From Candidatus Nezhaarchaeota archaeon (GTDB lineage: Archaea; Thermoproteota; Methanomethylicia; Nezhaarchaeales; WYZ-LMO8), in contig JASFYF010000001.1 in NCBI GenBank assembly GCA_030055465.1, positions 830,581 through 894,580 on the forward strand: 64,000 nt of DNA, given 5' to 3'. Every line of letters starts with the position of its first letter. The stretch's first letter is position 1. The notes under the pieces were generated by a model, which saw nothing but the letters and a program-made list of their open reading frames with translations, searched no databases and had not been told where the DNA came from. The position numbers and the translations under genes are program-made. Shown piece after piece: positions 979 to 56,139 of the stretch.

Positions 979-3183
979 ATGGTGAAGTTCAAGCAGACAG
1001 AGGAAATACTGAAGATGATGAGGAGCCGAGAGCAGGTGCGTAACATAGGCACGCTGGCGCACGTTGATCACGGGAAGACGACGCTCAGCGACAGCCTGCT
1101 GCTGGCCGCCGGCATGATATCGCCCAAGGTTGCCGGCAAGGCCCTCGCCCTCGACTATGTCGAGATAGAGCAGATGAGGCAGATGACTGTCAAAGCAGCC
1201 AACGTTTCGCTGTACCACGAGTGGAACGGCAGGCCATACCTCATCAACCTGGTGGACACGCCGGGTCACGTTGACTTCACTGGCCACGTCACCCGCAGCC
1301 TGAGGGTCATGGACGGCGGGGTCGTCGTCGTCGACGCCGTTGAAGGCGTCATGACCCAGACCGAAACTGTTCTCAGGCAGGCCATGGAGGAGCGCGTTAG
1401 GCCCCTCCTCTACATAAACAAGGTTGACCGCCTCATCAGGGAGCTGAAGCTCAGCGCAAGCGAGGTTCAGCAGAGGTTCGTCGACATAATCCGGGACTTC
1501 AACGCCTTAGTGGACCTCTACGGTGAACCCGAATTCAAGGATAAGTGGAAGGTGGACCCGGCTAAGGGCCAGGTGGCCTTCGGGGCGGCCCTCCACAAGT
1601 GGGGGTTAACAATACCCCTAGTCCAGAAGAAGGGAGTCAGGTTCAGCTACATCGTCGACGCCTACGAGAAGGGATACCACGATAAGCTGGCGGAGGAGTT
1701 CCCCCTCTACGAGGCCATACTCGACATGGTCGTCGAGCACGTGCCCAACCCTGTTGAGGCCCAGAAGTACCGAATCCCGAAGATATGGCGCGGCGACCTC
1801 AACAGCCCGGTGGGCAAAGCCATGATGGAGTGCGACGTGGACGGCCCCCTCGTCATATGCGTTAACAAGGTCGTCGCGGACCCGCACGCTGGCTTGGTTG
1901 CCACCGGCAGGGTTTTCAGCGGCACGGTTGAGGAGGGCCGCGAGGTCTACTTGATGATGGGCAGGACGTCGGAGAGGATAAGCCAGGTGGGCCTCTACAT
2001 GGGTCCATACCGGGAGGTCTGCGAGAGGATCGCAGCCGGAAACATAGCCGCCATGCTTGGTTTGGAGCATGCCAGGGCCGGCGAGACGGTCATCGACCCG
2101 TCCCTGAAGGGCGTGATGGTACCGTTCGAGCGCCTCAGGTACATAAGCGAGCCGGTAGTCACGATAGCGATTGAACCCAAGAAGAGCAGCGACCTGCCCA
2201 AGCTTGTGGAGGCGCTCAGGAAGATGGCCATCGAGGATCCAACGCTTCACGTTAAGATAAACCAGGAGACCGGCGAGTACCTGATCTCCGGGATGGGTCA
2301 GCTGCACCTCGAAATAGCCTTGTGGGACCTGAAGCAGAGGACGAGCATAGACGTTTCGACCACGCCCCCCATAGTCGTCTACCGCGAAAGCGTCAGGAAG
2401 ACTGTGGGGCCCTTCGAGGGCAAATCGCCCAACAAGCACAACAGGGTTTACATAGTGGTTGAACCGCTCAACGAGGATACCCTGCGCCTCCTCGAGGTCG
2501 GGCGCGTCTACGAGGACCAGGACTGGCGGGATCGAGCCAAAATCCTGAGGGAGGAGGCTGGATGGGACACCGACGAGGCGCGCGGCATATGGGCCATAGA
2601 CGAGTTCATGAACGTGTTCGTGGACGCAACCAAGGGAGTCCAGTACCTGAGGGACATAAAGGACACCTTGATATCAGGCTTCAGGTGGTCCCTTGCGGAG
2701 GGGCCCCTATGCCACGAGCCATGCCGTGGAGTGAAGGTTAAGCTCGTCGACGCAATGGTCCACGAGGACCCGGCTCACAGGGGCCCAGCGCAGATAATGC
2801 CAGCCCTTCGAGACGCAATATTCGCCGGCTTCCTCTCGGCTAGGCCAACCCTGCTTGAGCCCGTGCTGAAGATAGAGGCCAAGTGCCCATCCGAGTACGT
2901 GTCCGGCTTAACGAGGATTTTGGCCACCCATCGCGGCAAGGTGTCGAGCCTCGAAGGCCAGGAGACCATGATGTACCTTAAAGGCGAGATACCGGTCTCG
3001 GAGACCTTCAACCTGGCCAACGAGATCAGGAGCGCCACGGCCGGCCGCGCCTTCTGGGCTACGGAGTTCAAGGGCTGGCAGCCCGTCCCAGAATCCATGC
3101 TTCAAGAGCTGGTGTTGAGGATACGCGAGAGGAAGGGGTTGCCGAAGGAGATCCCGAAGCCCGAGGACTACATGCCCATGTAA
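979..3183 (+). CDS. fusA: translation elongation factor aEF-2
   Basis: Has the G-domain AHVDHGKTT, DTPGHVDF and NKVDR motifs and the diphthamide-site HEDPAHRG. ATG 979 (MVKFKQTEEIL) is more plausible than the GTG at 949. Confidence 0.97.
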   Translation: MVKFKQTEEILKMMRSREQVRNIGTLAHVDHGKTTLSDSLLLAAGMISPKVAGKALALDYVEIEQMRQMTVKAANVSLYHEWNGRPYLINLVDTPGHVDFTGHVTRSLRVMDGGVVVVDAVEGVMTQTETVLRQAMEERVRPLLYINKVDRLIRELKLSASEVQQRFVDIIRDFNALVDLYGEPEFKDKWKVDPAKGQVAFGAALHKWGLTIPLVQKKGVRFSYIVDAYEKGYHDKLAEEFPLYEAILDMVVEHVPNPVEAQKYRIPKIWRGDLNSPVGKAMMECDVDGPLVICVNKVVADPHAGLVATGRVFSGTVEEGREVYLMMGRTSERISQVGLYMGPYREVCERIAAGNIAAMLGLEHARAGETVIDPSLKGVMVPFERLRYISEPVVTIAIEPKKSSDLPKLVEALRKMAIEDPTLHVKINQETGEYLISGMGQLHLEIALWDLKQRTSIDVSTTPPIVVYRESVRKTVGPFEGKSPNKHNRVYIVVEPLNEDTLRLLEVGRVYEDQDWRDRAKILREEAGWDTDEARGIWAIDEFMNVFVDATKGVQYLRDIKDTLISGFRWSLAEGPLCHEPCRGVKVKLVDAMVHEDPAHRGPAQIMPALRDAIFAGFLSARPTLLEPVLKIEAKCPSEYVSGLTRILATHRGKVSSLEGQETMMYLKGEIPVSETFNLANEIRSATAGRAFWATEFKGWQPVPESMLQELVLRIRERKGLPKEIPKPEDYMPM

Positions 3184-3249
3184 CCTTCATCCCAAGTTTT
3201 TGTGGGGTTGCAGCACCTTAAACTCGGCTTGTCCGCGCGGGGCGACATC

Positions 3250-20237: not shown

Positions 20238-21527
20238 ATGGGAAGGATTAAAGAAAGCAAGGGTACCGTCATCAAGGTTGAGGGGCCGGCAAGCATACAG
20301 GTCTTGGAGGGCGCCGTCTCCATTTTGGGATCTATAGTTAAACCCAAGGATAAACTGATAATACCAAGACATAAATTCGCAGCCTTAGAGTTTGTTGAGG
20401 ACTCGGTTGTTGAGCTTCGAATGGGGGGTGAAGCCAAAATGGACAGGGTTAACGAAACCTTAATACCATCTGAGTGGAGGGCGACCGTCGAAAACATGCT
20501 GGCTCGCCGCCGAAAACCCATCAGCTGCATGATCCTCGGGGATGTCGATAGCGGCAAAACGGCTTTTTGCACCTACCTAGCAAACCACGCAGCCAACCTA
20601 GGCTTAAAGGTTGGGGTTATAGATAAGGACCCCGGCCAAACCGAAATATCCGTTCCGACCACCATAGGTCTGGGAATCATCGAGAAGCCCGTTTACTCGC
20701 TCGAGCAGGTCAAGGCTGTAACGGCTAGGTTTGTGGGATCCACCTCGCCCGCCAACGTCGGACATAGGATAATAGCCGCTACAAAGCAGCTCTACGACGA
20801 GGCAGGTAAAATGGGCTGCGATGTGGTTGTCGTAAATACAAGCGGTTGGGTTGATGGTCGAGGAGCTCGTGAACTCAAGTACAACGTGATAAGCGCAATT
20901 CACCCTCAATTTCTAGTTCTAATACAAAGGGCCAACGAGGTCGAGCACCTCGTCAAACCCTTTGAAAAAAGCGATGTAGAGATAATCAGGGTTCAGCCCA
21001 TAATTGGAAAGGTTAAAAGCAAAGACGAGAGGAGGACTCGCAGGGAGGCAGTATACCGTAACTACTTCTCCAAGGCCAAGACTAGGAAGGTAAGCCTGAG
21101 CAGCGCGAGGCTTATGTTCACTATGTTCACGACCGGTGCGAGGCTCAGCGATGAGGCTCTAGAAAGGTATTCGAAAGACCTGTCGATAGAGCTGGTTTAC
21201 GGTGAGGAAAGCAAGGACTCCTTATTCCTGGTGAGCAGAGGGGCGGTCTTGGAGAGAGGGAAAATAGAGGAAAAAGCAAAGGTGACGTACGGCAAGGAAG
21301 ACGTTGTGATCACATGGCTTGGCGAGGAGAGAGGCCTCATGGCTGGCCTCCTGTCTCCGGACCTAACCTACCTGGGACTTGGAATAATACGTGAAGTTGA
21401 TTACGCCAAAAAATTGTTGGAGATATTCACCCCCGTTGAAGACATGATAGGGGTAATTCAAGTTGGACTCATAAAGTTAGACGACGATTTTAGGGAGTCC
21501 CAAAAGTATGATAGGAGTCCTTTATAG
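20238..21527 (+). CDS. Clp1/Grc3-type polynucleotide 5'-hydroxyl kinase
   Basis: P-loop ILGDVDSGKTAFCTYLAN followed by DKDPGQ and NTSGW motifs; 429 aa. Confidence 0.7.
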   Translation: MGRIKESKGTVIKVEGPASIQVLEGAVSILGSIVKPKDKLIIPRHKFAALEFVEDSVVELRMGGEAKMDRVNETLIPSEWRATVENMLARRRKPISCMILGDVDSGKTAFCTYLANHAANLGLKVGVIDKDPGQTEISVPTTIGLGIIEKPVYSLEQVKAVTARFVGSTSPANVGHRIIAATKQLYDEAGKMGCDVVVVNTSGWVDGRGARELKYNVISAIHPQFLVLIQRANEVEHLVKPFEKSDVEIIRVQPIIGKVKSKDERRTRREAVYRNYFSKAKTRKVSLSSARLMFTMFTTGARLSDEALERYSKDLSIELVYGEESKDSLFLVSRGAVLERGKIEEKAKVTYGKEDVVITWLGEERGLMAGLLSPDLTYLGLGIIREVDYAKKLLEIFTPVEDMIGVIQVGLIKLDDDFRESQKYDRSPL

Positions 21528-27468: not shown

Positions 27469-27936
27469 TCACAACATCCTTGATATGAGCTCATTTATTG
27501 CGGCGCCCCGGTATCCCAGCTCTCCTCCCTGCCCATACATCTTCCTCATAGAACCCTTAAATCCCTTTGAAGGCGGATGAAGCCTGAAGACGGGCTTCAG
27601 GCCCTTTATTTCGTTGAGCTTTATCCTGCCTTCAAGTAGGGCGCTTGCCAGCTCTTTGAAGCTTCCAAAGCCCAACTTCTCCAGGTAGCTGGACGATAGC
27701 TTCCTGCCGCCAACCGTTCTCCCTCTCTTCTCGAGGAGACCGGCTAGAACCGCCTCGTTTATCTCGCCATAAGTTACGTAGCCCGCCGCCTTTTCAAGCA
27801 TGCCCCCAATGGATGGCGTTGCCTCAACTATTGTGCAGCTGTTCTTCCGCGTGAGGCGCAGAGACGATAAAGTTAACTCCACATCTCCGGGCACGCCAAC
27901 GCTTCCCCTTAACCTGATAACGGCGTAGACCTTCAT
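27469..27936 (-). CDS. rpl30: 50S ribosomal protein L30 (uL30)
   Basis: Starts MKVYAVIRLRGSVGVPGDVELTLSSLRL. ATGA overlap with the rps5 stop. Confidence 0.92.
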   Translation of the reverse strand: MKVYAVIRLRGSVGVPGDVELTLSSLRLTRKNSCTIVEATPSIGGMLEKAAGYVTYGEINEAVLAGLLEKRGRTVGGRKLSSSYLEKLGFGSFKELASALLEGRIKLNEIKGLKPVFRLHPPSKGFKGSMRKMYGQGGELGYRGAAINELISRML

Positions 27937-28367
27937 GTTCTCATCCAATCCTTCACGCTTTTGAAGGCAAGAGTGTTCCTTAAAGCCTCCAGAGTAGCCC
28001 TAGCCATGTTTTCCTTGGTTCTCGTCTCGCCCTTGCTCGACGTCCAAACATCCTTTACGCCGGCCAGCCTGAGAACAATCTTGGCAGTGTCGCCAGCTAC
28101 AAGCCCCGTACCCCTCGGAGCGGGCATCAAAACAACCTCCACGCTTCCCGCTTTCCCCCAAGCCCTAAAGGAAACGCTGTGAGGCTTCCCGCACCTGCAC
28201 TCCCAGCTGCCGCAGCCCAGCTTAACCGGTATAACGTTTAGCTTGGCCTCAGTTATCGCCTTATCAATGGCCTCCCTCATCTGCTTGGCCTTGGCCGTGC
28301 CAAACCCCACGTATCCTGATTCGTTGCCTATGGCAACGACTACCTTAAACCTTGAGGATTCGCCAGC
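27933..28367 (-). CDS. rps5: 30S ribosomal protein S5 (uS5), exon 2 (AGESSRFKVVVAIGNESGYVGFG... to stop)
   Basis: The conserved uS5 core extends 19 codons upstream of the first start codon of listed ORF 27933..28310. Length 435 nt, in frame to the stop. Confidence 0.85.
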   Translation of the reverse strand, partial: AGESSRFKVVVAIGNESGYVGFGTAKAKQMREAIDKAITEAKLNVIPVKLGCGSWECRCGKPHSVSFRAWGKAGSVEVVLMPAPRGTGLVAGDTAKIVLRLAGVKDVWTSSKGETRTKENMARATLEALRNTLAFKSVKDWMRT

Positions 28368-28395
28368 TTACGGCCGCCTAATCGAGTTAGGCGGT
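28368..28395 (-). other. predicted 28-nt bulge-helix-bulge (hBHBh') intron in rps5 pre-mRNA
   Basis: Sense strand reads CAG-ACGG-ACA-CCGCCTAA-CTCGA-TTAGGCGG-CCGT-AAG-CTG. Excision joins QKQTD|AGESSRF; see finding. Confidence 0.75.
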
Positions 28396-28593
28396 GTCCG
28401 TCTGCTTCTGCACTATGTTTACGTCTATGACCTCATGTCTTAGGTTCGGAAGCAGCACATCAACTATTTCAGGCTCCTTTATTACGAGGTTGTTGGCAAA
28501 AACCTCATCTATGCTCGTTATCTTGCCTTCCTTCACCAGCCTTCCTACGCTTGTTGCTGGAACCCATGTTTCTAGCGTGGACATGCTCACCAA
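28396..28593 (-). CDS. rps5: 30S ribosomal protein S5 (uS5), exon 1 (66 codons ending ...NIVQKQTD)
   Basis: N-terminal uS5 region ([21 protein letters not shown]...[10 protein letters not shown]). The listed ORF continues 2 codons into the intron to a TAA. Confidence 0.85.
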
Positions 28594-35564: not shown

Positions 35565-36158
35565 CTATGCCTTGGGCAAAACTATGAAGCCTTCGCATTT
35601 ATCGCCTATCAATTCAACCTCGCCCTTAAAGTACTTGTAGGCAACGTAAGCGGACATCGCGGCATCCAGCTCGTGGATACTCCTGACATTTCCCAGCCTT
35701 AATCCAAGCCTCAAAAGGCCCTTGAGGGAGCCTTCAAAATCCTTCTTCGGCGACGCTATCCCCAAGGCAACGAAGGCCCCGGTTGGGAAAACCTCTATGA
35801 CATCGCAGCCGACATCCCTCAACGCCTCGCCCAACTTAATACCCCTGCGCGCCAGCCTCAACATTCCAGGCAGGCTTAACGGCAACACCTTGAAGCCCCT
35901 TCTCCTCGCCTCCAAGTCGCAGAACCTGAAAGCCCCTCCACCCTTCGGCATCGATAGCGGGGAGTCAACTGCCACAACCTTGGGCTTCAGGCTTAGCGCC
36001 AAGTTTATTACTTCCTCGTCAAACCTTAGAAGCCCCGCATCACACGACATGCTGCAAGCAGAAAGAACGCAGTAGCCGGACGGCCTCCGCTCCGTAGCGG
36101 CGAGGTCTATGCCTAAAAACAACAATCTCCCTCCGCACTTTACGTGTGAGGAAGACAT
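35565..36158 (-). CDS. RNase H-fold protein, DUF429-like (uncertain)
   Basis: The N-terminal LFLGIDLAA...GYCVL pattern is typical of RNase H-like folds. No firm family assignment without a search. Confidence 0.35.
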   Translation of the reverse strand: MSSSHVKCGGRLLFLGIDLAATERRPSGYCVLSACSMSCDAGLLRFDEEVINLALSLKPKVVAVDSPLSMPKGGGAFRFCDLEARRRGFKVLPLSLPGMLRLARRGIKLGEALRDVGCDVIEVFPTGAFVALGIASPKKDFEGSLKGLLRLGLRLGNVRSIHELDAAMSAYVAYKYFKGEVELIGDKCEGFIVLPKA

Positions 36159-48032: not shown

Positions 48033-48131
48033 TGGTGCGGCCGCCGGGATTTGAACCCGGGTCGCCAGCGCTCTTCGGAGCTTGAACCCCGTGGAAGGCT
48101 GGTGTCCTAATCCAGGCTAGACGACGGCCGC
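48033..48131 (-). tRNA. tRNA-Gly (anticodon UCC) with a 21-nt canonical intron (48071..48091), CCA encoded
   Basis: Anticodon arm CCAGC-CUUCCA|intron|C-GCUGG. BHB: H CUUC/GAAG, bulges CAC and AGC, h' GGGG/CUCC. Confidence 0.9.
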
Positions 48132-48286: not shown

Positions 48287-48848
48287 TCATGGTTTCAAGA
48301 TTCTCAGCACGTTTTCGCGATATGGCGGTCTTATTATGCCCTTCTCGGTTACTATGGCTGTTACGAGCTCGGGCGGAGTGACGTCGAAGGCTGGGTTCAA
48401 AACCTTGACGTCTATGGTTATGGGCTTCCCATTCACCTCGAGAACCTCCTTTGGATCCCTGCTCTCTATAGCCACCTGATCCGAGGTGGACTGCAAGTCG
48501 AATGTTGAAGTTGGCGCCGCCACGTAGAAGGGTATCGAAAACCTGCTGGCAACCACTGCCACAGTCAAGGTCCCTATCTTGTTCACCACGTGTCCATCCC
48601 TCAACACCCTGTCGGCGCCGACTATCACCTTGTTCACGATGCCTCGGCTCATGACGTAGCCCACCATGTTGTCGGTTATTAGCGTAACGTCTATGCCGTC
48701 CCTCTTCAACTCGTAGACCGTCAATTTAGCCCCCTGAAGTCTAGGCCTGGTCTCCGTGGCTATGACCCTCACCCTCCTGCCCTTCGCCACGGCGCTCCTG
48801 ATGATGCCTAGCGCCGTCCCATAACCAACCGTGGCTAGGGCACCCGCA
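48287..48848 (-). CDS. mtnA: MtnA / eIF-2B alpha-beta-delta family isomerase (methylthioribose-1-P isomerase-like), exon 2
   Basis: Begins with the third base of the Asn codon, then AGALATVGYGTALGIIRSA...VIVGADRV. 562 nt to the stop. Confidence 0.8.
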
Positions 48849-48879
48849 CTCCGCCAGCTGAGCTTAGAGCCCAAGCTGT
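48849..48879 (-). other. predicted 31-nt BHB-type (HBh') intron in mtnA-like pre-mRNA
   Basis: Sense strand reads CUGC-AAA-CAGCU-(14 nt)-AGCUG-GCGG-AGU. Excision gives THC-N-AGALAT; see finding. Confidence 0.65.
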
Positions 48880-49352
48880 TTGCAGTGCGTGAGAACCACG
48901 TCACCTTCATCTATTAGCTGGGCACCAATCTCACCCATCCTTCGATTTGCCTCCACGTCCTCCTCAGCCATCTTCAAGGCCTCCTTAACTGCGAGGCTCC
49001 GAGCCTCCTCAACGGTTTCAGCGCCTCTGATCACGGCAAGCATCCTTTCAACAGCCCAAAACAGGTTCCTAGCTGTGGGTCTAGAGCTTGAAAGCAGCTT
49101 TGCAGCCTCCTCTACGCTTCTCCTAAGCTCGCCTAGCTCGTTGGCTTTTGAGCGTATAACCGCCAACGCGATGCCCATAGCGGCGGCCACCCCGATGGCT
49201 GGGGCACCCCTAACGGTCATGTTCTTGATGGCCTCGGCTACTTCCTCAACGCTCCTGCACTCAACATACCTGCACTCCCATGGCAAGGCGTTCTGATCTA
49301 AAAGCCTGACTACATCGCCGTGGAGCTCAACGGTTCTAACATCAAAAAACAC
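48880..49352 (-). CDS. mtnA: MtnA / eIF-2B family isomerase, exon 1 (ends ...GDVVLTHC plus the first two bases, AA, of the Asn codon)
   Basis: Contains LLDQNALPWE...MTVRGAPAIGVAAAMG...GDVVLTHC. 473 nt. Confidence 0.8.
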
Positions 49353-49451: not shown

Positions 49452-49577
49452 GCGGGGGTTCCCGAGTCCGGACAAAGGGGCGGGACTTAAGATCTCTACG
49501 CGCTTGAGGTTAGATGTTCGAGCTAAGCGATCCCGTGGCGTAGGCCTGCGTGGGTTCGAATCCCACCCCCCGCACCA
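49452..49577 (+). tRNA. tRNA-Leu (anticodon UAA) with a 38-nt canonical intron (49492..49529), long variable arm, CCA encoded
   Basis: Acceptor GCGGGGG/CCCCCGC; anticodon arm CGGGA-CUUAAG|intron|A-UCCCG. BHB: H CUUA/UAAG, bulges AGA and CGA. Confidence 0.9.
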
Positions 49578-51684: not shown

Positions 51685-52179
51685 ATGGGTGATCCCAAGA
51701 AGCCCAAGAAGACGTGGAGGGCCCCCCTCCACCCGTGGAAGAGGGATGCCTTGAGAAGGGAGATGGAGCTCGTTGGGCTCTACGGCCTCAGGAACAAGCG
51801 CGAGCTCTGGAAAGCCGTAAGCACCCTCAGGAACTTCAGACATCAAGCTAGGAGGCTTCTCGCTCAGAGGGATGAGAAGCAGGTAAATGATCTGTTAGCT
51901 AAGCTTAGCAGGTTTGGCCTTTTACCCCCAAACTCAACGCTTGATGACGTCTTATCTTTAAAGATCGAGGACATCCTGGAGAGGAGGCTTCAAACCATAG
52001 TGTTCAGGAAGGGGCTAGCGAAAACCATGTATCAAGCCCGCCAGCTGATAATCCACAGGCATGTGGCGATAGGCGGAACCGTGGTGACAACCCCTAACAG
52101 GCTCCTCACCGTGGAGGAGGAGAAGCTCGTCCGATTGATAGGAGTCCCCATTACCGTTGAAGGTAAGGGAGGTGGATGA
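51685..52179 (+). CDS. rps4: 30S ribosomal protein S4 (uS4)
   Basis: Starts [19 protein letters not shown], with a C-terminal S4 domain. Confidence 0.95.
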
Positions 52180-54870: not shown

Positions 54871-56139
54871 TTGGTGGAGACTGCAATAGAGGATGTTTAC
54901 GCTCGAAAAGTCTTTGACAGCAGAGGCAACCCAACCATAGAGGTTGACGTTGTAACCGTTGATGGGTTCGGCCGCGCCTCAGCGCCTTCTGGTGCTAGCA
55001 CGGGGAGGCATGAGGTTGTCGCCTTCCCCAAGGGGGGAGTTGACGATGCTGTGAGGATAGTTAACGAGGACGTGGCTGAGAGGATCATAGGCATGGACGC
55101 CCTAGATCAAGCCGCTGTCGACTTCATGCTCCATGAAGTGGATGGGACTGAAAACTTCTCGAGGATTGGAGGTGCTGCTGCTTTGGCTGTTTCGATGGCC
55201 ACAGCTAAGGCTGCAGCCTCATCCTTCGACATGCCCCTATTCCAGTATATAGGTGGCCTATTCGCGACGCAGTTGCCCTACCCCCTAGGCAACGTCATAG
55301 GTGGAGGCAGACACGCTGGGGACAAGACGCCTAACATTCAGGAGCTGCTGGTAATCCCGGTTGGCGCGAAAACCTACGCTGAGGCGGTCGACGCGTGCTT
55401 CAAGGTTCATAGGGAGGCGGGCAAGATAATCGGTGCTTCAAACCATGGTTTTGCAGGCGGCAGAGGGGACGAGGGGGCTTGGGCCGCCAACCTTTCAGAC
55501 GAGGAGGCCATTCTCACCTTGGTGAAGGCGTGCGACAAGGTGGAGAGCGACATCGGGTGCCGAATAGTCATCGGCATAGACGTCGCAGCCTCCAGCTTGT
55601 GGAGGGATGACAAAGGAGGATACTGGCTTAGGAGGGAGGGGAAGCTTAGAGGCCGAGAGGAGCACATCAACTTCATGCTGGAGATCGTGGATAAGTATGA
55701 TGTAAGGTACCTCGAAGATCCGCTCCACGAAGACGACTTCGAGGGGTTCAGCGAACTCGTGAAGGCGGTAGGGCATAAAGTTCTCGTCTGCGGCGACGAC
55801 CTCTTCACCACAAACCCCGCCAGAATCGCTAAGGGGATAGAAGTCGCGGCCGCCAATGCGGTTATAATAAAGCCAAACCAGGTGGGAACGCTTTCAGACG
55901 CCTACGAGGCGGTGAAGGCTTCCCGGAGGGGTGGGCTCACCCCAGTTATCTCGCATAGGTCCGGCGAAACTGAGGATGCGTTTATAAGCCATTTAGCAGT
56001 TGGCTTAAGGTGCCCAATCATAAAGACCGGCATATTAGGCGGAGAGAGAATGTCAAAGCACAACGAGCTCCTCAGGATAGAGGAATCATTGGAAAACGTT
56101 AAAGCTATGGCTGAGCTTCCTATCCACTTAAGGCGGTAG
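54871..56139 (+). CDS. eno: enolase
   Basis: Contains VFDSRGNPTIEVDV...SHRSGETED...IKTG. Confidence 0.95.
   Translation: MVETAIEDVYARKVFDSRGNPTIEVDVVTVDGFGRASAPSGASTGRHEVVAFPKGGVDDAVRIVNEDVAERIIGMDALDQAAVDFMLHEVDGTENFSRIGGAAALAVSMATAKAAASSFDMPLFQYIGGLFATQLPYPLGNVIGGGRHAGDKTPNIQELLVIPVGAKTYAEAVDACFKVHREAGKIIGASNHGFAGGRGDEGAWAANLSDEEAILTLVKACDKVESDIGCRIVIGIDVAASSLWRDDKGGYWLRREGKLRGREEHINFMLEIVDKYDVRYLEDPLHEDDFEGFSELVKAVGHKVLVCGDDLFTTNPARIAKGIEVAAANAVIIKPNQVGTLSDAYEAVKASRRGGLTPVISHRSGETEDAFISHLAVGLRCPIIKTGILGGERMSKHNELLRIEESLENVKAMAELPIHLRR

Follow-up and report, generated by a model that had tools for sequence, protein, structure and literature searches.

Only one archaeal gene, cbf5, is confirmed to have a bulge-helix-bulge (BHB) intron within its coding sequence; to this can be added an intron in a 5' untranslated region (UTR) from Haloferax (PMC2738675; PMC7714728). 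The cbf5 pre-mRNA intron is found in Desulfurococcales and Sulfolobales (Watanabe et al. 2002; Yokobori et al. 2009, PMC2738675). The Haloferax intron is located in the 5' UTR of the HVO_1309 mRNA of Haloferax volcanii, and it is a confirmed substrate of the splicing endonuclease EndA both in vivo and in vitro (PMC7714728). For more than twenty years the literature has named cbf5 as the sole archaeal coding sequence with such an intron (PMC7714728; PMC12397907), and a 2025 paper on EndA still cites the cbf5 work alone for mRNA (PMC12397907). The initial annotation of the DNA described here named cbf5 as the sole established case; this is correct for coding sequences, but the HVO_1309 intron is also established (PMC7714728). 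Here we describe an insert of 28 nucleotides (nt) that interrupts the gene for ribosomal protein uS5 and that is very probably a BHB intron removed from the mRNA by the tRNA-splicing machinery. The gene is located in a 64,000-nt stretch of a Candidatus Nezhaarchaeota archaeon (contig JASFYF010000001.1, positions 830,581 to 894,580), which is referred to as the window and which provides the coordinates used below. No report was found in the literature of BHB introns in uS5, Nezhaarchaeota, MtnA or ribosomal-protein genes, in a search whose coverage was incomplete, so that absence is not proof.

By its host gene the uS5 insert is outside the cbf5 orthologous intron family, and its mechanistic class is the same; that is, it is a cbf5-type archaeal mRNA intron in a new host gene. 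Like the cbf5 intron, it is short, resides in a coding sequence of the TACK/Thermoproteota, is defined by a BHB motif, would use the tRNA-splicing machinery, is restricted to one lineage and is mis-called by gene finders as a frameshift. There are also differences. The cbf5 host gene encodes a pseudouridine synthase, whereas uS5 is an essential and universal protein, the lineage is of the Nezhaarchaeota type and the motif is of the strict hBHBh' form, i.e., an outer helix (h), a central helix (H) flanked by two bulges and an inner helix (h'). Furthermore, cbf5 splicing was established by experiment in several species, whereas for uS5 we infer it. The HVO_1309 intron likewise resides in an mRNA that EndA cleaves, as predicted for uS5, but it is in an untranslated leader and has no reading frame to restore. 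The introns found between tRNA positions 37 and 38 have the same two 3-nt bulges placed 4 base pairs (bp) apart and the same cut after the second bulge base; unlike them, the uS5 motif has no tRNA body, and its outer helix consists of the codons for Q-T-D and A-G, so that the protein sequence limits how the exon half of the motif can vary. Finally, in HAC1/XBP1 splicing, Ire1 together with a tRNA ligase or RtcB excises a very short mRNA intron without a spliceosome and the frame changes. The use of a protein endonuclease and a tRNA-type ligase, the very short intron and the frame change are all similar to what is proposed here. However, the HAC1/XBP1 system depends on Ire1 and a paired stem-loop motif, is eukaryotic and is regulated by stress, so the similarity is an analogy and not a homology of introns.

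The uS5 gene is in an eL32-eL19-uL18-uS5-uL30 cluster, and the list of open reading frames (ORFs) divides it between two minus-strand ORFs whose frames differ (28387..28593 and 27933..28310). The residues AGESSRFKVVVAIGNESGY are encoded between them at 28311..28367, upstream of every start codon available to the second ORF. Read on the minus strand from 28404 to 28364, the sequence is CAG-ACGG-ACA-CCGCCTAA-CTCGA-TTAGGCGG-CCGT-AAG-CTG, which is a canonical hBHBh' motif. The outer helix pairs CAG (28402..28404) with CTG (28364..28366), the latter being inside the codons GCT GGC of the second exon. In the central 4-bp helix, the exon-coded strand ACGG (28398..28401) pairs with the intronic strand CCGT (28370..28373). 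The 5' bulge is ACA (28395..28397), the 3' bulge is AAG (28367..28369), and the 8-bp inner helix formed by CCGCCTAA and TTAGGCGG occupies 28374..28394 with the loop CTCGA at 28382..28386. The order of these elements, h-H-bulge-h' on the 5' side and h'-H-bulge-h on the 3' side, is that of a canonical tRNA intron. In the codon context of the minus strand, with bars at the predicted cuts, the region reads ...GTG CAG AAG CAG ACG GAC|ACC GCC TAA CTC GAT TAG GCG GCC GTA A|GC TGG CGA A.... Exon 1 (28396..28593) starts with ATG at 28584 or TTG at 28593 and ends ...CAG ACG GAC (Q-T-D); the 28-nt intron ACCGCCTAACTCGATTAGGCGGCCGTAA covers 28368..28395 and has homologous inserts in the 20 loci discussed below; exon 2 (27933..28367) begins GCT GGC GAA (A-G-E), includes the stop codon and overlaps the start of the uL30 gene. 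The third codon of the intron is a TAA in the exon-1 frame (28387..28389), and its final triplet is a TAA in the exon-2 frame (28368..28370). The initial annotation had proposed the two out-of-frame ORFs, the conserved stretch beyond the reach of the second ORF's starts, the motif with a 3-bp outer helix, a 4-bp central helix, two 3-nt bulges and an 8-bp inner helix, and both TAA codons within the excised piece; all of these are confirmed, and its sequence and coordinates are exact.

Deletion of 28368..28395 produces a single uS5 ORF with both S5 Pfam domains (PF00333, 8e-25; PF03719, 4e-24); the break is within the N-terminal S5 domain (residues 48-112). The product consists of 207 amino acids (aa) if translation starts at ATG 28584 and of 210 aa if it starts at TTG 28593, and the longer form is plausible because the relatives have ATG where the window has TTG. 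The 210-aa product originally proposed therefore holds if TTG is the start and not if ATG is. The spliced product aligns without gaps to solved archaeal uS5 structures, the best being 9fhl_F (E = 2e-84), whose residues at the junction, vqkqtdage, match the query residue for residue (QKQTD|AGE). The alignment to solved eukaryotic uS5 is also gap-free. Thus the gap-free joining at QTD|AGE that the initial annotation had predicted agrees with both the 9fhl_F alignment and the Pfam matches. The predicted cuts, 28396/28395 and 28368/28367, each follow the second base of a bulge and are symmetric across the 4-bp helix. Their placement is based on frame restoration and on the tRNA-Gly(UCC) gene of the same window (48036..48131, minus strand), which has a canonical 21-nt BHB intron at 48071..48091 between positions 37 and 38 and on which the cut rule, taken over from the initial annotation, works as proposed.

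Scans at the DNA level found 20 related loci, with uS5 proteins 80-85% identical to that of the window, in which a 29- or 30-nt insert occupies the identical codon boundary. The comparison of related rps5 loci that the initial annotation had recommended gives a decisive result. Six of the 20 loci are in species-representative genomes, and the other 14 are on metagenome contigs that derive from about 10 samples; the six genomes are labelled Nezhaarchaeota/Nezhaarchaeales or, loosely, 'Methanomethylicota', 'Nitrososphaerota' or 'Thermoprotei'. In total there are 11 distinct intron sequences and 12 distinct sequences when the flanks are included. Cutting after the second bulge base restores both the frame and the QKQTDAGE motif in 21 of 21 loci; the predicted tryptic peptide across the junction is QTDAGESSR in the window and QTDAGEISR or QTDAGETSR in relatives. 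All of the other classifiable archaeal uS5 loci (97/97) have an uninterrupted QKQT[DH]AG site, and the sequence expected from splicing is exactly the one present in these 97 intron-less genes. For example, the empty site of the nearest intron-less relative (69% identity) is CAGAAGCAGACAGATGCTGGTGAG, to be compared with CAGAAGCAGACGGAC|GCTGGCGAA in the window after excision. The retention of this insert across 20 related genomes makes it almost certain that the uS5 mRNA has to be spliced. When uS5 sequences are placed in a neighbour-joining tree, the 15 distinct ones that bear the intron group in a single clade, from which intron-less sequences are absent, and no loss of the intron was seen within the sampled clade. 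The simplest history suggested by these sequences would be one gain followed by long retention.

The two 3-nt bulges and the geometry of the 4-bp helix are kept in 21 of 21 loci, and 99% of the pair positions in the 12 distinct sequences are standard pairs. The inner helix is 8-10 bp long across the loci and 99% paired. Four pairs have changes on both sides, three of them in the inner helix (C-G to U-A at its base, G-C to A-U at the third pair and G-C to A-U at the eighth pair), which also shows one U-A to U-G change. The fourth is in the central helix, which is 100% paired: locus L029 has ACAG/CTGT, in which a synonymous exon change of ACG to ACA is matched by an intronic change of C to T (G-C to A-U). 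None of 500 column shuffles matched the observed pairing and compensation values, and when the 3' partners were slid by 1-3 columns the pairing fell to 15-40% with zero compensatory pairs. RNAalifold, given the alignment as its sole input, recovered the central helix, the 3-nt 5' bulge and the inner helix. The 3' bulge is AAG in most loci and AGG in two (L034 and L112), the outer helix CAG/CUG is invariant in 11 of the 12 distinct sequences, and the loop of the intron varies freely. The A of the window's TAA pairs with U, and the G of the TAG found in relatives pairs with C; therefore, one compensatory change preserves the stop codon and the helix together. In the window itself, the 61-nt region folds with an energy of -22.4 kcal/mol (z = -2.8), and none of 200 shuffled versions folds as well. 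The minimum-energy fold includes the 4-bp helix, the 3-nt 5' bulge and the 8-bp hairpin, with the outer helix placed 1-2 bases further out.

These observations suggest the following pathway. The uS5 gene would be transcribed within the ribosomal-protein cluster, and codons 61-65 of the pre-mRNA together with the 28-nt insert would fold into the hBHBh' structure, with a central helix that is half exon and half intron. EndA would then cut past the second base of each bulge, at the two positions given above, leaving 2',3'-cyclic phosphate and 5'-OH ends, a ligase of the RtcB type would join the exons, and the intron would probably be circularised. The mature mRNA, ...CAG ACG GAC|GCT GGC GAA..., would be translated into a normal uS5 of 207-210 aa. 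The enzymes, the cut positions at the level of single nucleotides and the efficiency of splicing are the parts of this pathway that we infer. The unspliced RNA codes only for a fragment of 65-68 aa, as the third intron codon is a stop in every variant. With this stop three codons into the intron and another directly before exon 2 in the frame of exon 2, the unspliced mRNA cannot give uS5.

Several observations weigh against this explanation, however. The case for splicing is built from DNA data. Neither EndA nor RtcB was among the Pfam matches to 71 of the 73 window ORFs of at least 80 aa; indirect evidence for an active splicing machinery comes from the tRNA genes of the window that carry BHB introns. 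A loose BHB scan of the window (inner helix of at least 5 bp, intron of at most 120 nt) gave 78 matches, compared with about 69 in dinucleotide shuffles, and the BHB motif by itself has no statistical weight. The outer helix, at only 3 bp, is the weakest element. In three loci (L057, positions 3175-3232; L058; L060) the first codon of exon 2 is GCC rather than GCT, which puts an A-C mismatch into it, and RNAalifold favours another 3-bp register for this helix, shifted by 1-2 nt. The stems are also more conserved than pairing demands, while synonymous sites are saturated, and because of this the covariation amounts to few independent events among related sequences. As a separate observation, the GCC codon of the three loci fits the outer register of RNAalifold, where it changes a G-U pair to G-C.

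Of the other explanations, the one that survives best is that the motif serves as a cleavage site or regulatory switch, at which the polycistronic transcript would be cleaved by EndA, with religation of no more than a minor fraction. The known substrates of EndA are not limited to tRNA and include the Haloferax mRNA 5' UTR (PMC7714728), stops at both intron borders would silence RNA that is unspliced or cut, and the excess conservation of the stems would suit such a role. However, exon 2 is under strong selection at the protein level. In addition, each 30S subunit needs one uS5 and a further copy of close similarity was not seen, and therefore most of the transcripts must be spliced productively. 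We consider cleavage with only minor religation improbable; moreover, it is compatible with splicing of the uS5 mRNA and is a refinement of that explanation, not an alternative to it.

Less probable still is a decayed or split gene, in which the insertion was disabling and uS5 is supplied by another copy or by two polypeptides that assemble. Gene callers do report two ORFs. The four possible uS5 ORF fragments have no exact match in a collection of 15 billion proteins. However, the spliced coding sequences have a median dN/dS of 0.045 across the relatives (dS 1.3-2.5), both halves being near 0.04 at a saturated dS of more than 1.5 (exon 1, 0.03; exon 2, 0.06). The first 20 codons after the insert are especially informative. 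They have an in-frame TAA or TAG just before them and no start codon, but nonetheless they are under purifying selection (dN 0.03, dS 0.91; 14 codon columns with synonymous changes only and four with amino-acid changes), and therefore they are translated in that frame as the continuation of exon 1. Furthermore, the GTG that opens the second ORF of the window (28310) is replaced by GTT or GTC in most relatives, and the interruption falls inside the N-terminal S5 domain. No intact uS5 with more than 69% identity was found among 5.8 billion proteins, so that collection holds no closely related intact copy, a statement that covers close copies only. A paired structure with compensatory changes would also be unexpected of a dead insertion. 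The earlier opinion that a true pseudogene is implausible is thus upheld by strong purifying selection on both exons.

Translational recoding, by programmed frameshifting, stop readthrough or bypassing with the hairpin as a stimulator, is about equally unlikely. The uS5 insert places a stable hairpin right after a stop codon, an arrangement also present in the bypass of phage T4 gene 60, and the 28-nt insert of the window alters the frame. However, inserts of 28, 29 and 30 nt would require frame corrections of +2, +1 and 0, respectively. The 28- and 29-nt inserts shift the frame; those of 30 nt preserve it, but each has two or three stops in the frame of exon 1, where every variant has at least one. 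Therefore, no single recoding mechanism fits all three lengths. The take-off codon, GAC or GAT, is not repeated at the landing site, and readthrough would add about 10 residues at a place where the other uS5 proteins all align without gaps. Bypassing also has no need of the conserved geometry, namely two 3-nt bulges 4 bp apart, with a compensatory change in the 4-bp helix between them. The stops themselves flank the intron in every variant, with a TAA or TAG as the third codon in the exon-1 frame and a TAA or TAG as the last triplet in the exon-2 frame. If the uS5 mRNA is spliced, as we propose, they could be a fail-safe against translation of unspliced RNA, or they could be a by-product of the conserved stem and bulge.

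A group I or group II self-splicing intron is ruled out by size, as the insert has 28 nt and the ribozyme cores have hundreds of nucleotides, and also by Rfam, which matches only tRNAs in the window. Nothing was found in favour of an assembly or sequencing artefact, and this explanation is excluded because the insert recurs, in 11 sequence variants, in 20 assemblies that were produced independently from the samples of different projects.

The uS5 gene is not the only interrupted gene in the window. Pfam coordinates indicate that the minus-strand ORFs 48864..49352 and 48287..48910 are the halves of one gene (48287..49352) of the IF-2B family, of the MtnA/aIF-2BI type, with a second BHB-type intron of 31 nt at 48849..48879 on the minus strand. 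Removal of the 31 nt joins CAC TGC AA|T GCG GGT, which gives ...VLTHCN|AGALATVGYGTALG... in a 344-aa protein that aligns gap-free to PDB 1t5o. The motif consists of a 4-bp helix (CUGC/GCGG), the bulges AAA and AGU and an inner hairpin; its outer helix is weak and interrupted, making it a relaxed BHB, which would predict an EndA of broad specificity. Our scanner needs a contiguous outer helix and for this reason missed this intron, which was found from the Pfam coordinates of the adjacent ORFs. The same site is interrupted by 23-31 nt in eight other loci (L134, 1440-1510; L135; L136, 1401-1470; L137; and L138-L141, at about 1460-1500), and in all eight the removal restores LTHCNAGALAT. Four of them are about 80% identical to the window and have 31-nt inserts; one of these, L136, comes from the same genome (CAZPGS01) as L003, one of the loci with a uS5 intron. 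In the remaining four, identity to the window falls to 62-66%, the inserts measure 23-29 nt and the hairpins are unrelated (CAGCUCU, UGGCCC, UGACUUUC), and yet the geometry of the bulges and helix is identical across the eight loci. As the same site is used in lineages only 62-66% identical and with unrelated hairpins, the MtnA-type intron is older and more widespread than the uS5 intron. An empty site is present in L132 (2001-3044; GCA_038861225.1, Nezhaarchaeales), where an intact, intron-less homologue with 61% identity reads CAT TGT AAT GCT GGA. The MtnA-type intron thus supports the view that this organism would splice mRNAs.

Some of the neighbours of these genes are related to splicing. 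In the four distant lineages, the split MtnA-like gene is divergent and adjoins hisS and an endA gene with the tRNA_int_endo_N and tRNA_int_endo domains (L138, 380-904; L139, 384-896; L140, 349-870; L141, 382-885). The intron-less homologue in L132 is flanked by a gene for a Clp1-type kinase. The window also encodes a Clp1-type P-loop domain (20238..21527, plus strand; PF16575, 1.9e-41). Members of the Clp1 family are RNA 5'-OH kinases tied to tRNA splicing in eukaryotes.

At least two of the approximately 70 genes in the window, uS5 and the MtnA/aIF-2BI-like gene, are therefore interrupted by BHB-type introns. It is possible, although we regard it as doubtful, that the tRNA-splicing machinery acts as a general and obligatory mRNA-splicing system in this lineage. 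Were introns as frequent in the rest of the genome, they would interrupt dozens of coding genes, and ribosome production would be gated by EndA and RtcB, a checkpoint that couples translation capacity to the maturation of tRNA and rRNA. A conserved uS5 intron would show that mRNA splicing by this machinery can be indispensable for viability. The uS5 case would also place coding-sequence BHB introns beyond the Desulfurococcales and Sulfolobales. The finding of a second intron in the same window suggests that such introns have been overlooked because gene finders ignore them; genes split in this way risk being annotated as frameshifted pseudogenes, and the introns are probably under-counted. There is a practical side to this. 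Phylogenomics and estimates of genome completeness use uS5 as a standard single-copy marker, and as it is predicted only as fragments in this clade, it would be missed or mis-scored there. Splicing of uS5 should be directly testable, as there is a Methanonezhaarchaeia enrichment culture (PMC12700198) and Nezhaarchaeota are represented in metatranscriptomes from hot springs (PMC10306296).

Scans with other settings place the uS5 motif in context. The ORF-joining scan, in which both joined reading frames had to have at least 40 codons, gave 20 loose matches in the window, and the uS5 site is the sole compact and fully paired motif among them. The same scanner found no other ORF-repairing BHB in the flanks of the 20 related loci. 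A covariance model built from the intron and its flanks was run on the window and on 100 related loci and detected no further copy, the weak matches being empty sites; the intron does not belong to a repeated or mobile element family. A very loose BHB scan combined with ORF rescue gave 410 matches and was pure noise. Three compact BHB-like hairpins with inner helices of 8 bp (55183..55207 on the plus strand, 35704..35727 on the minus strand and 51890..51918 on the plus strand) repair no ORF and were taken as chance occurrences. They lie in intact ORFs for enolase, a DUF429 protein and uS4.

Those ribosomal-protein genes that were checked one by one are intact, among them uL6, uS8, uS14, uL5, eS4, uS4 and uS11. 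A hidden in-frame insert was suspected in uL24, where a Pfam match of 115 residues covers a profile of 82 positions, and was rejected because the alignment to solved uL24 is gap-free. An Rfam search of the whole window found tRNAs only. The tRNA-Gly(UCC) gene mentioned above is called tRNA-Trp(CCA) by ARAGORN. A further tRNA of 123 nt (49452..49574, plus strand), detected by Rfam only and missed by ARAGORN, has the anticodon region ..CUUAAGA.. together with intron sequence, and it is probably tRNA-Leu(UAA).

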